A stretch of 64,000 bases of DNA from Candidatus Aenigmatarchaeota archaeon. Its GTDB lineage: Archaea; Aenigmatarchaeota; Aenigmatarchaeia; Aenigmatarchaeales; JACQIB01. The stretch is from the NCBI GenBank assembly GCA_043799675.1, contig JAZDNN010000024.1, forward strand, positions 32,412 through 96,411, given 5' to 3'. The first letter of the stretch is position 1. Every line of letters starts with the position of its first letter. Positions 27,001 to 30,000 of this stretch are shown here, piece after piece. Position numbers: made by a program.

Positions 27001-30000
27001 CCCCGCGCCTGAAAATCCTGTATAGAATTGGATTAAAGCCCTGTTCCCTTAGTTGCCGTTTTATCCTACCAAGCAAGGTTTTATTTTCGGTGCCTATCCG
27101 CATACAACACTGCAAATTTTCCCTGATTTTCTTGACCAGAAGCGACCCTTCCGCATCGAAGTAGCCGGCCAGGAACGACAGGAAAACATTCCGTTCGGAT
27201 TCGACCAACTCTGAAATCAATCGTTTCCTGTTTTCCAGCAAGAGGAAGTCGAAGCTGTTGTCGAGGTCTGCGGATGTCGTCCACATGTAATTTCCAAAAG
27301 TTCTGTTCTTCGCAGGATATGTCCTTACCTTCGCATATCCTTTGAACAGGCTCTCGAAGACATCCAGGAATCCTTCATGAGTCGTGTTGGTTATGGCCCG
27401 AATGGTATGCTTCGATCTTCTGAAGGCTGTCACATCACCCTCCACGAAACCAACCATGTAAGCCTTTTCTTCATCCTTTCCATCAAAACTTTGCCGTTCA
27501 TGTTTCCTGTTTGTCAGCAGGATAGCCTCATCGTTTCCACGCACCCGAAAGCCGTTTTCTTCCAGCACCTTATGCAACGTGCCTTTGGAAGAACCAAATT
27601 TCTTGGCCAGCTTTTTCAACGATATTTTCTCCGTGTCATAAAGTCTCAGAATTTCCGTCACAGGCAGGTGTTTCCTGTGAGACAACGAATGTGCCTGACT
27701 GAGATTCCTTATCGGTATGTCAAGTTTGATGAACCGTTTTCTTACGGCCGACCACGATATATCGTCTCCGAGCTTAACACTCAATATCGCCGCCACTTCT
27801 TTGAACGTCTTACCGGACGAATAGAGACTCTCGGCTTCCTTCAGGAGTTCGCTGTTCAGCTTCATGGTCGTCTATTATATCCCGTTAGGCACTATAAATT
27901 GATATATATTCTCGAGCACACTAATCATGCAGAATACATCCAAAAATATTATTATACCTTCCAGCGAGCGCATTTCTCAACCTGAACGTGTCGCCCTGCG
28001 CCGCATAGGCCATCCAGCCCTCAAGGCTTTTCGCAGCCTGTTCTGCCGAAATCTCACCGGATTCGTACTGCAGTCTGAGTGCCGTCATCCTTTTTTCGAG
28101 CTTCAGCAGGTTCCTCCTTTTTGGAATCCTGTAGTGGTAGAACACCCTGAAGCCGAGCAACGATATCCCCTTATGCAAAGGGTAGACCTGCGATTTTTCC
28201 TCATGCAACTCTAGCTTTAACCGTTGTTTGAGGAACCCGTTTATCCCGCTCCTGAACTGCATCAGCGCGGCCTCAGACCTGTCCAGAATCACGAAGTCAT
28301 CTACATACCGGAGATAGAACCTTGCCTTAAGCACGTGCTTCACGAAATGGTCCAGCTCATTCAGGTAGACGTTCGCGAAGAACTGGCTCGTCTGATTGCC
28401 TATCGGCATCCCCTTCGGCAGGGCAGGGTCGTTGTTCGACAGGATTTTCCGTACCAGCCAGAGCACGCTTTCGTCCCTTATTTTTCTCCGTATGATGCCA
28501 ATCAGGACATCGTGGTCGACGCTCGGGAAATAGTGCCTTATGTCGGCCTTCAGTGCATAGCCGACCACCATGTTGTTGTCCTTCGCGCCGTGCACCAAAC
28601 GGCCGTTCCCGGAAACCTTTCGCTTGAAGCAATCAAACCTGTCCAATGCTGCCAGGCCGCCCTTTCCCTTCCTGTTGGCGTAGCTGTCGTGGATGAACGT
28701 TTTGTCGAAAATCGGTTCGAGCACGTTGCATAACGCATGATGGACAACACGGTCCCTGAAATGCGAGGCATGAATTACCCGTGTCTTGGGGTCGCGGATG
28801 ATGAACCGTTTCAACGGGCGCGGCGAATACGTACGATTTTCAAGCTCAGTTTTCAAATCTGCCAATTCGCCATCAAGATTAGCTTCGAATCTTTTGACAT
28901 ACCATTTCTTCGACTTGCCCTTCCTCGCCTTTCTGAATGCCAGCAAAAGGTTCTCTGGCGAGCAGACCTTTCCGTAAAGGTTGTCAAATGTTTTCAAAAA
29001 TATCCCCTATCGGCGGCCCGTGCTATTGGCGCAGACCCCGTTGTCATTCAGGCTTCCCGCCAAAAGGCAATGAGGAAGTTTCCTGTTCGAGGGCCTGTTC
29101 GCATTTATGCCGGCGGAACGTTTCCTTCCAACCGTTCGCATTGAAGCACCCTTGACGGCCCGAAGGCTCTCGTCCGTGTTCCAATCCGACCTGACGGAAG
29201 GGTTTCGGTAGCCTCTCCACCGACATGACACCGCGGCTTCAATCTTCGGGAACCTACCAACTGAAACCGCTGAATTTAATGGCACAAGCATTCGGACGGC
29301 ATGAAATGCCATCGCACCATCTTGCGCTCTATGGAAAGGCGTATAGCGCGGGCCTTTGCCGGGAGAATGAAATACCCGCCCCCCGATTGGGAAGGAAAGA
29401 ACTCTGTCATGCAAAAATTGAGGGACGAAACGATTTATGCGCCTATTTTGAGGTCTTAACCGCTTTTTTTGCGGCGCAGACCCCGAGGTCATGCCTGAGC
29501 GAGGGCCCGCCCGCATCCGCATCGAAGCACCCCCCGTCGGAGTGCCAAGTCGACCTGACGGAAGCCACTTCAACCGGGATTAAGGCTTCTGTTTCGATTT
29601 CTACTATATCCAGTTTGTTGTCTTTCATCCTGTAAGAAGCCGCTTTCTGTTTGGCCAGCTTTTGGATGACCTCAAGATTATGATTCCAGTAATCGTCCAT
29701 CGTTGCCTTGTATTCCTTGTCGGAATTCATCAGTTCAGCCGACTCCTGTGCCTTGAAGTGTCTTACTCCAAAGTCCAGCTTGAACTCCTCGGGTATTCTC
29801 TGATAGACCAGTTCCTGGATTATCCTGTCCGCATTGGCGATGAACCCTTTGCGTTTATAGTCCCTGAACTTTCCTGCGTCCCCTTTGGCCATCAGGAGCG
29901 CATAGCCTTTCTTTTCAAGGTCCTTTTCCAGCCTCTTTCCGTCAATTATGGCCAATATTTCATCGACCTCTCCCAACCTTTCTTTTACAGAAAAATCATC

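Follow-up and report, generated by a model that had tools for sequence, protein, structure and literature searches.

RT-16 and an interrupted template repeat as a putative retron-like RNA module in an archaeal DGR

In retrons, a conserved purine lies at the end of the a1/a2 stem, beside the 3′ end of the template. Archaeal bulge–helix–bulge (BHB) introns are found in tRNA, rRNA and a few mRNAs, e.g., that of cbf5, and the two-subunit form of the splicing endonuclease EndA has a broad specificity. A canonical BHB also occurs in archaeal pre-rRNA processing stems, where it sits in a long helix formed by the flanks and leads to excision and to circularisation by RtcB.

A structured DGR RNA was described in the main text of Weinberg 2017, in which the RT-10 motif was placed in the DGR of Bordetella phage BPP-1. 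The same main text speculates that other RT motifs act in DGRs and does not name RT-16. According to the preprint by Handa et al., the sequences upstream and downstream of the template repeat (TR) in the BPP-1 DGR RNA pair with each other, and the point at which cDNA synthesis begins, with priming by the 2′-OH of an adenosine, is determined by a duplex located at the 3′ end of the TR. For retrons, Paul and Eren 2022 give a guanosine as the site of 2′-OH priming.

RT-16 at the template repeat

The stretch of DNA analysed here (the window) is 64,000 nucleotides long, and RT-16, the TR, the VRs and the reverse transcriptase (RT) gene all lie on its minus strand. A cmscan search of the whole window matched RT-16 (RF03019) at 29203–29379 with 57.2 bits and an E-value of 3.9e-06 over model positions 1–158 of 158, which exceeds the gathering score of 50 bits and makes the match a member of the Rfam family. 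It is the single RT-16 match in the genome of 748,753 bases, and no match was found in any of the 14 control genomes searched. The homology between TR and VRs begins at 29200, 3 nt past the last base of the match, and the RT gene follows at 27921–28997 (RVT_1, 3.1e-16), its open reading frame being intact and its start codon being TTG here and ATG in relatives. The earlier note had described a full-model match on this strand, ending 3 nt before the TR and lying upstream of a DGR RT gene, and all of this was reproduced.

The best solved relative of the RT is 8ub7_A (328 aa), which we take to be the RT of a Bordetella phage, with an E-value of 4.2e-43 over the full length, compared with 4.3e-23 for group II RTs and 1.2e-21 for retron RTs. 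Together with TR/VR pairs that differ at TR adenines, this DGR-type RT beside the TR identifies the element as a DGR. The statement that RT-16 is not a retron RNA holds for membership, given the TR/VR pairs and an RT closer to this solved RT than to retron or group II RTs, but not for topology, which is retron-like.

Among 59 loci with homologous RTs, 29 carry RT-16 above the gathering score (17/20, 6/19 and 6/20 by batch), and these 29 are found among 33 archaeal-labelled loci, compared with 0 of 26 bacterial-labelled ones. Three of the four remaining archaeal loci (L009, L022 and L061) extend less than 200 nt upstream of the RT, and the fourth (L015) shows a weaker match to RT-16 in an nhmmer search built on an alignment of 30 RT-16 sequences. 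The distance between the end of the RT-16 match and the first base of the TR is −5 to +4 nt in the 28 of the 29 loci with a mapped TR/VR pair, confirming that the match abuts the TR; in L046 a VR was looked for and none was found. When metagenome loci are added to the RT-homologue loci, a TR/VR pair is mapped in 46 distinct loci, in which the differences between TR and VR are nearly all at adenines. A conserved GCUAC could be placed in 45 of them, and the offset from it to the TR start is −2 to +10 nt. The order VR, RT-16, TR proposed for DPANN relatives is found throughout these 46 distinct DPANN loci, and this kind of DGR is one of DPANN archaea, probably Aenigmarchaeota.

In one of these loci, L012, the RT gene is inverted on the other strand while RT-16 still adjoins the TR, the whole RT-16–TR module, including the flank complementary to the RT-16 arm, lying away from the RT gene. 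The proposal that RT-16 is part of the DGR template RNA is therefore supported on three counts, since RT-16 abuts the TR in every mapped locus, since the two remain together where the RT gene is inverted, and since the 5′ arm of RT-16 pairs, with covariation, with the 3′ flank of the TR.

Insertions in the template repeat

The TR had been taken as a plain repeat at 29028–29200, which does not hold. As DNA it is 173 nt long, compared with 92 nt for each VR, and it consists of four exons (29200–29169, 29151–29136, 29104–29080 and 29046–29028; 92 nt in all) separated by three insertions of 17 nt (29152–29168), 31 nt (29105–29135) and 33 nt (29047–29079). VR1 (29473–29564, near the 3′ end of the target ORF 29443–30189) and VR2 (30331–30422, in the target ORF 30193–30918) are collinear with the TR only after 17 + 31 + 33 nt are removed in silico. 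Both then align without gaps over the 92 nt, VR1 with 76 matches, 14 A-to-N and 2 other differences and VR2 with 81 matches, 11 A-to-N and 0 other differences. A collinear TR copy was looked for across the genome and none was found.

Each of the three insertions shows BHB geometry with a perfect 4-bp central helix (H) in register, namely GACG/CGUC with bulges AGA and AAG for insertion 1, AUGC/GCAU with bulges GAA and AAA for insertion 2, and CAGG/CCUG with bulges AAA and AAU for insertion 3. Insertion 1 has an inner hairpin with a UUCG loop, and its loops in close relatives are UUCG, GCAA or GUAA. The same three insertion sites recur in diverged loci (RT identity 58–85%), where the insertion sequences differ and the helices are kept.

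The geometry was then scored for 41 insertions of 10 nt or more in the TRs of 20 distinct loci, i.e., the three of the window and 38 in 19 others, with lengths of 15–53 nt. In 34 of the 41, the last exon bases pair at four out of four positions with the insertion's 3′ end, exactly in BHB register, compared with 1.7 insertions expected by chance from intron shuffles to have a perfect 4-bp helix, and at least three of the four pairs form in 39. An inner helix of at least 2 bp directly follows the 3-nt bulge in 38 of 41. The outer helix beside the 3′ cut is weak, reaching at least 2 bp in only 17 of 41, so that these are relaxed BHB motifs, and two insertions (in L090 and L093) require that one non-A mismatch be tolerated to fall into the canonical register. 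In a test that does not depend on alignment shifts, 36 of 41 insertions have a 4-bp helix in which the distance between the ends of the two strands is exactly the deletion length, compared with 7–17 for other spacings. If each strand is cut 2 nt beyond the 3′ end of the helix, 39/39 alignments are accommodated, and if it is cut 3 nt beyond, 38/39; no other cuts suit nearly all of them. In an unfitted MAFFT alignment of nine loci, 94.9% of the cells pair (86.5% in shuffled alignments, 0/500 as high; 24–41% in slid-alignment controls), and 15 of 33 pairs are changed on both sides, again with 0/500 shuffles as high.

As a positive control, the intron of tRNA-Arg(UCG) in the same genome gave an identical geometry with the same script, and in a second control, the tRNA-Leu intron checked by hand, three of four H pairs were found. 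Only these two were used as controls among the nine intron calls made by aragorn in this genome, several of which are mis-typed. Of two large insertions in the LSU rRNA, the first holds one doubtful BHB candidate, and a search of the second for a BHB found none.

The host encodes the enzymes that act on such introns, with EndA represented by two adjacent ORFs on contig 10 that carry the N and C domains of tRNA_int_endo, and the ligase RtcB encoded within the window at 25338–26801 (3.6e-157). As a general feature of these loci, RtcB was rejected as a dedicated neighbour of the DGR, the window, L066 and L006 being the only ones in which RtcB and an HTH-LAGLIDADG gene adjoin it.

Based on the observed geometry, covariation and exact deletion lengths, removal of the insertions by EndA and RtcB is most likely, although we infer the action of these enzymes on the template RNA. 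EndA and RtcB would remove the three TR introns, the RT would copy the 92-nt spliced template, and the VRs would then be retro-copies of spliced RNA. The introns are not required for the DGR to work, since the TRs of 26 of the 46 mapped loci are intron-free, and presence and absence are precise between relatives (L026 vs. L023 and L029).

It is also conceivable, albeit unlikely, that the insertions are never spliced and serve as hairpins in the template RNA, for RT binding or folding, across which the RT jumps during cDNA synthesis, while RT-16 and the TR still form one module. Each insertion is indeed a hairpin, junction microhomology of 0–3 nt is present because both bulges are A-rich, and Wu et al. 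2018 attribute the TR/VR length differences seen in 7% of DGRs to RT slippage. However, skipping a hairpin should delete both strands of its basal helix, whereas the VR keeps the 5′ strand and loses the 3′ strand. In the 36 of 41 insertions noted above, the stagger between the two strands is as long as the deletion, a hallmark of cuts that are symmetric and staggered, and the bulge of exactly 3 nt with a 4-bp helix is that of the tRNA intron in the same genome. A jump between the direct repeats that flank insertion 2 was rejected on length, as it predicts a deletion of 37 nt and 31 nt is observed. Moreover, among the 23 of 26 bacterial-labelled relatives examined, the 17 with a clear TR/VR pair have no such insertions, each showing one collinear main TR/VR block.

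A helix that closes RT-16 and the template repeat

The first arm of RT-16 (29343–29366) is complementary to a segment of the TR 3′ flank (29003–29026), and the resulting closing helix appears in both minimum-free-energy (MFE) folds and is supported by covariation. Read 5′ to 3′, the 5′ strand consists of an outer helix h (29362–29366, UCUCC), H (29358–29361, CGGC), a bulge (29355–29357, AAA) and an inner helix h′ (29343–29354), while the 3′ strand consists of h′ (29015–29026), H (29011–29014, GCCG), a bulge (29008–29010, AUA) and h (29003–29007, GGGGA). Pairs change on both sides in 8 of 12 h′ positions and 2 of 4 H positions, and the complementarity between arm and flank is locus-specific, the observed value being reached in 0 of 10,000 permutations. 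In the Rfam model, the first arm forms a local hairpin, a fold in competition with the closing helix. The earlier description of RT-16 as a 5′ leader is thus correct in that RT-16 lies 5′ of the TR, but it is too narrow, as RT-16 clasps the TR at both ends via the closing helix.

In this fold, pairing of the first arm with the 24 nt after the TR would close the RT-16 core and the TR into a loop, and it would set the conserved CUAC-A-CG motif beside the TR 3′ end, where cDNA synthesis must start. The A of this motif (29342), directly 3′ of the 5′ strand of the helix, is invariant (column A44) in 30/30 RT-16 sequences and is a candidate for the nucleotide that primes from its 2′-OH. The most likely role of RT-16 is therefore that of an RT-docking and initiation/stop element.

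In the clade of the window, the closing helix itself takes the form of a canonical BHB, with cuts predicted after 29356 and after 29009. The strict hBHBh′ form of this terminal motif is found in six distinct loci (the window, L004, L005, L006, L008 and L020), with an h′ of 10–12 bp and an h of 3–6 bp, while L079 and other clades have a closing helix without a canonical terminal BHB. Loose criteria give terminal BHB candidates in 18 of 46 loci, only 7 of them with a long inner helix in homologous position. L079 was rejected because its helix is continuous with one bulge, and the remaining loose candidates look like chance AT-rich matches.

Taken together, the reading that we consider rather probable, judging from comparative sequence data, is that RT-16 and the TR form one retron-like RNA module, in which, prior to reverse transcription, the host EndA and RtcB would splice the TR and might also cut out the whole module. 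In the clade of the window, the module may be excised from the target–RT transcript via the BHB of the closing helix. Tentatively, EndA would cut this BHB and RtcB would circularise the 347-nt RT-16–TR RNA, which upon loss of the three introns would become a circle of ~266 nt with RT-16 flanking the 92-nt template, and the RT would prime in cis from the 2′-OH of A 29342; we regard this sequence of events as possible but doubtful. Upon excision, the helix that covers the RT ribosome-binding site would be reduced from 21 bp to 5 bp, which could couple RT translation to template maturation.

The overlap with this site raises the question of whether RT-16 and the closing helix act mainly in translational control of the RT gene, with no direct part in reverse transcription. 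GGGGA at 29003–29007 probably doubles as the RT ribosome-binding site, and the outermost 5 bp pair GGGGA, GGAGA or GAAGA with UCUCC or UCUUC, with covariation, 6–7 nt before the RT start codon. However, in L012 the RT-16–TR module is separated from the RT gene, with the two on opposite strands, and the start codon is not where the inner 12 bp and the invariant motif are located, both being at the 3′ end of the TR, which makes translational control as the main function improbable. The two roles, in translational control and in reverse transcription, are mutually compatible.

That the DGR has decayed, with junk insertions in a dead TR and VRs as relics, might be suggested by the two non-A differences of VR1 and by the absence of an Avd-like gene nearby (no Pfam family on the nine neighbouring ORFs or the targets, although a small divergent Avd can escape Pfam), but is very improbable in view of the intact RT ORF, the adenine-only bias of TR/VR differences in 46 loci almost without exception, and the conservation of insertion sites and helices across diverged loci. 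In NCBIfam, neither the RT nor the targets nor a 411-aa neighbour had a match above the cut-offs.

Significance and comparison with known systems

No published account of an intron-bearing or BHB-containing DGR template was found in the literature, although the supplement of Weinberg 2017 and Paul et al. 2017 may say more. Searches linking DGRs with the splicing endonuclease or RtcB, and RT-16 with reverse transcriptase, gave only unrelated material, and one linking DGR, Rfam and template repeat found none. As far as this literature search shows, this is the first DGR found with a template interrupted by introns, and the orphan family RT-16 gains a role as a cis-acting RNA of DPANN DGRs that clasps the template at both ends. 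The VRs are a built-in genomic proof that the insertions are missing from the cDNA, and, if the reading of a circular module is true, they would constitute a natural record, in DNA, of RNA splicing in archaea. If the introns are removed before copying, two cell machineries that were previously not known to meet, tRNA-type intron removal and DGR reverse transcription, would be tied together, and the use of host RNA processing by a retroelement becomes directly testable. [quoted passage not shown] Finally, the retron-like layout bears on the kinship of DGRs, retrons and group II introns, and the system points to a template RNA that is compact and programmable and has defined ends.

Compared with the BPP-1 spacer RNA (RT-10), the RNA is in both cases structured and fused to the TR, and pairing takes place across the TR, with the duplex at the TR 3′ end marking the cDNA start in BPP-1. 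However, the structured part lies 5′ of the TR here, the gap from the TR end (29028) to the RT start (28997) is 30–31 nt, and cmscan found no RT-10 match in the window; the RNA is thus not of the BPP-1 type. In addition, the Pfam search found no Avd here, and the BPP-1 TR has no insertions. The retron msr-msd shares the order of structured RNA, template and RT gene, the terminal inverted repeats that close the RNA, and the conserved purine at the end of the closing stem near the template 3′ end, from which priming is suggested here by analogy. A retron makes branched msDNA with no genomic target repeat, whereas the cDNA here has a genomic target in the form of two VRs with A-to-N changes.

The TR insertions agree with archaeal BHB introns in the 4-bp helix, the 3-nt bulges 3′ of each strand, the cuts 2 nt into each bulge (predicted here), the inner hairpin and the short length, in a host that encodes the splicing endonuclease and RtcB. 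They differ in that the outer helix is often weak (the relaxed form), that the host RNA is a retroelement template, and that removal is evidenced by a DNA retro-copy, the VR. The closing helix resembles the pre-rRNA processing stems in that a long helix between 5′ and 3′ flanks with a canonical BHB surrounds a functional RNA, which here is the 347-nt RT-16–TR unit, found with this motif in only six distinct loci and, conceivably, able to form a circle.

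RT-16 and the template repeat

The RNA motif RT-16 (Rfam RF03019) was matched by cmscan on the minus strand at 29203-29379 (57.2 bits, the gathering score being 50; model positions 1 to 158), and this match is the only one in the whole genome (748,753 bases, 45 contigs); the same search found none in 14 of 14 control genomes. Homology between the DGR template repeat (TR) and the variable repeats (VRs) of the target genes starts at 29200, 3 nt past the end of the match, which bears out the earlier note in placing RT-16 just 5′ of the TR and upstream of the reverse transcriptase (RT) gene. 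The RT ORF lies downstream at 27921-28997 (minus strand) with an RVT_1 domain (3.1e-16), and its start codon is a TTG with a GGGGA run 6 nt ahead. Its best solved relative is 8ub7_A, a 328-aa reverse transcriptase matched over the full length (E 4.2e-43), to which it is far more similar than to solved group II intron RTs (4.3e-23) or retron RTs (1.2e-21).

Upstream of RT-16, two target ORFs without a Pfam family, 29443-30189 (VR1) and 30193-30918 (VR2), each carry a 92-93-nt repeat copy. A third target paralogue (ORF 30979-31701) contains a weak, partial VR-like stretch at 31121-31173 (minus strand), which shows 36 matches, 14 differences at TR adenines (A-to-N) and 3 other differences against positions 33-85 of the spliced TR, and could represent a third VR that has decayed or is remote. 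The RT gene is directly adjoined by the genes for a 411-aa protein with HTH and LAGLIDADG_3 domains (26630-27865, minus strand) and for RtcB (25338-26801, plus strand), which overlap at their ends. Among the related loci, only L066 and L006 have this pair next to their DGR, in L006 on the side of the targets; L004 and the rest do not.

A scan of species-representative genomes yielded 59 loci with homologous RTs, 29 of which have RT-16 above the gathering score: 29 of the 33 labelled archaeal versus none of the 26 labelled bacterial. Three of the four archaeal loci without a match end within 200 nt upstream of the RT, and the fourth, L015, has a weaker match by nhmmer. A metagenome scan gave 80 more loci, many of them duplicates. 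In L053, labelled uncultured bacterium (RT 59% identical over residues 1-128), neither Rfam nor nhmmer found RT-16 in the 4 kb upstream of the RT. In L065 (62-545; RT 85% identical to that of the window), two extra hairpin insertions within RT-16 split the nhmmer match in two; its TR region, three TR insertions and 3′ flank are unchanged in length apart from a 3-nt difference in the loop of insertion 3.

Using an adenine-tolerant aligner, a TR/VR pair was mapped in 46 distinct loci, the window counted, with differences nearly all at TR adenines; no VR was found in L046, the sequence of six further loci runs out ahead of the VR, and in four the upstream region is too short. Measured from a conserved GCUAC near the RT-16 3′ end (45 loci where GCUAC was located), the TR start lies at -2 to +10 nt; measured from the end of the Rfam matches, it lies at -5 to +4 nt. 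In L012 the RT gene lies on the other strand, and the 94-nt TR still begins at +1 after RT-16, with the VR upstream (80 matches, 13 A-to-N, 1 other). Because the adjacency persists there, RT-16 travels with the TR rather than with the RT gene, supporting the view of the earlier note that RT-16 is part of the DGR template RNA, a reading that is correct as far as it goes and describes a real feature. In both L012 and its duplicate L085 the VR-RT-16-TR module runs opposite to the RT gene, so that template RNA and RT mRNA cannot share one transcript.

Insertions in the template repeat

The window TR is 173 nt long versus 92 nt for the VRs, and contains three insertions (17, 31 and 33 nt) absent from both VRs. 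When these are removed in silico, exons of 32, 16, 25 and 19 nt form a 92-nt TR that aligns without gaps, end to end, with VR2 (81 matches, 11 A-to-N, 0 other) and VR1 (76 matches, 14 A-to-N, 2 other). The genome (assembly 83% complete) has no collinear TR copy, and therefore the cDNA that rewrites the VRs must lack the insertions.

Counting insertions of at least 10 nt followed by at least 14 nt more TR/VR homology, 41 were found in 20 distinct loci, at up to three conserved sites; nine gaps had been dropped as alignment tails past the end of the TR homology. L026 lacks the third insertion exactly where L023 and L029 carry one. Among 23 of the 26 bacterial-labelled relatives (L051, L053 and L062 left out), 17 have a clear TR/VR pair, whose main block is single and collinear or falls into two parts 1-3 nt apart, and L030 aligns poorly with a 19-nt gap.

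The archaeal bulge-helix-bulge (BHB) motif has a 4-bp helix with a 3-nt bulge 3′ of each strand, and each bulge is cleaved by the endonuclease after its second nucleotide. The geometry was checked on the 41-nt intron of tRNA-Arg(UCG) in the same genome, whose removal in BHB register restores a 7-nt anticodon loop. Exon bases -6 to -3 form 4/4 pairs with insertion bases -6 to -3 in 34 of the 41 insertions, against 1.7 perfect cases for shuffled insertions, and at least 3/4 pairs in the exact register are present in 39; the inner helix directly follows the 3-nt bulge in 38. All three window insertions are in perfect register (GACG/CGUC, AUGC/GCAU, CAGG/CCUG). In a junction-independent test, a perfect 4-bp helix with strand ends exactly one deletion length apart was found for 36 of 41 insertions, versus 7-17 at other spacings. 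In the window's close relatives, insertion 1 has UUCG, GCAA or GUAA loops and insertion 2 shows compensatory changes. The outer helix beside the 3′ cut reaches at least 2 bp in only 17 of 41, indicating that the TR insertions are relaxed motifs, and those of L090 and L093 are in register only if one non-A mismatch is allowed in each.

On both strands, a cut 2 or 3 nt 3′ of the helix is the only placement compatible with nearly all alignments. The VR retains the 5′ strand of the helix and has lost the 3′ strand, the product of symmetric staggered cuts; a polymerase jump across the hairpin would not leave this combination. The wider result is that template RNAs with putative tRNA-type introns serve the window DGR and no fewer than 19 relatives, all processing steps being predicted from sequence.

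The genome encodes two adjacent EndA-type proteins of 170 and 209 aa in slightly overlapping ORFs (contig C10:51469-52295, L063), each with both tRNA-intron endonuclease domains, which suggests a two-subunit enzyme. Introns were placed by aragorn in nine tRNA genes, in several cases at non-canonical positions and with the wrong amino acid assigned (SeC, Pyl); this tRNA set needs BHB-aware annotation. A partial archaeal LSU rRNA gene at 62079-64000 (minus strand, 235 bits) has unaligned insertions of 655 and 752 nt that are probably introns, and a simple BHB search of their borders gave nothing convincing.

The closing helix

The first arm of RT-16 pairs with the 3′ flank of the TR, and this closing helix covaries. 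Pairing of the 12 bases that precede the invariant A in CUAC-A-CG amounts to 9.64/12 with the flank of their own locus versus 8.15/12 with those of other loci (5.34 versus 4.05 over the 7 variable positions), a value reached by 0 of 10,000 permutations. For the closing helix and the three intron helices together, counted in an unfitted MAFFT alignment of nine loci, 94.9% of cells pair, versus 86.5 ± 1.0% when shuffled (0/500 as high) and 24-41% when slid; both sides change in 15 of 33 pairs versus 7.8 shuffled (0/500 as high), including 8/12 inner-helix and 2/4 central-helix pairs. No more than ~5 nt separate the start of the duplex from the point where TR/VR homology ends, and the duplex is present in both minimum-energy folds of the window RNA (383 nt, -155.4 kcal/mol, z -4.2; 458 nt, -170 kcal/mol, z -2.06). 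The resulting fold, with RT-16 enclosing the template, is retron-like.

In the window, the helix comprises an outer helix of 5 bp (29362-29366 with 29003-29007), a bulge AUA (29008-29010), a central helix of 4 bp (29358-29361 with 29011-29014), a bulge AAA (29355-29357) and an inner helix of 12 bp (29343-29354 with 29015-29026). This strict hBHBh′ form is shared by L004, L005, L006, L008 and L020. The remaining clades have no BHB in the closing helix, and a 5′-strand hairpin splits the two arms; in L079 the helix is continuous with one bulge.

Proposed working and comparison with known systems

The fold would keep the TR 3′ end beside the conserved core of RT-16, where the RT may dock, begin cDNA at the TR 3′ end and halt on reaching the RT-16 helix that immediately precedes the TR. 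As primer, the obvious candidate is the invariant A at 29342, which directly follows the closing helix. EndA and RtcB would take out the three introns ahead of copying and, at loci whose closing helix is a BHB, may free the whole module (347 nt in the window) and join it into a circle. The GGGGA run of the RT gene would be covered by the outer 5 bp, so such processing could also open RT translation. Because the introns split TR/VR DNA homology into 16-32 bp pieces, they might shield the TR against recombination with the VRs, and they would in addition link diversification to RNA processing.

Weinberg et al. (2017) described RT-1 to RT-19 as motifs near RT genes, assigned RT-10 to the BPP-1 DGR and speculated that further RT motifs work in DGRs; the accessible portion of that main text does not mention RT-16 by name, and assigning RT-16 to a DGR adds a member to a known kind. 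TR/VR length differences were reported in 25 of 372 DGRs and ascribed to slippage at AAC (Wu et al. 2018), and the accessible part of a study of Nanoarchaeota DGRs describes IMH motifs and hairpins without mentioning TR insertions (Paul et al. 2015). Our literature search returned nothing relevant joining DGRs with bulge-helix-bulge motifs, splicing endonuclease, RtcB or Rfam, and intron-bearing, BHB-flanked templates, as proposed here, would make a new form of DGR. The arrangement resembles the phage BPP-1 DGR, in which, according to the available part of a preprint by Handa et al., the upstream RNA pairs with the spacer RNA, a short duplex at the TR 3′ end places an adenosine 2′-OH as primer, and the RT is wrapped in the RNA. 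It likewise resembles retrons, with their msr-msd-RT transcript and 2′-OH priming, as outlined in the accessible text of Paul and Eren (2022).
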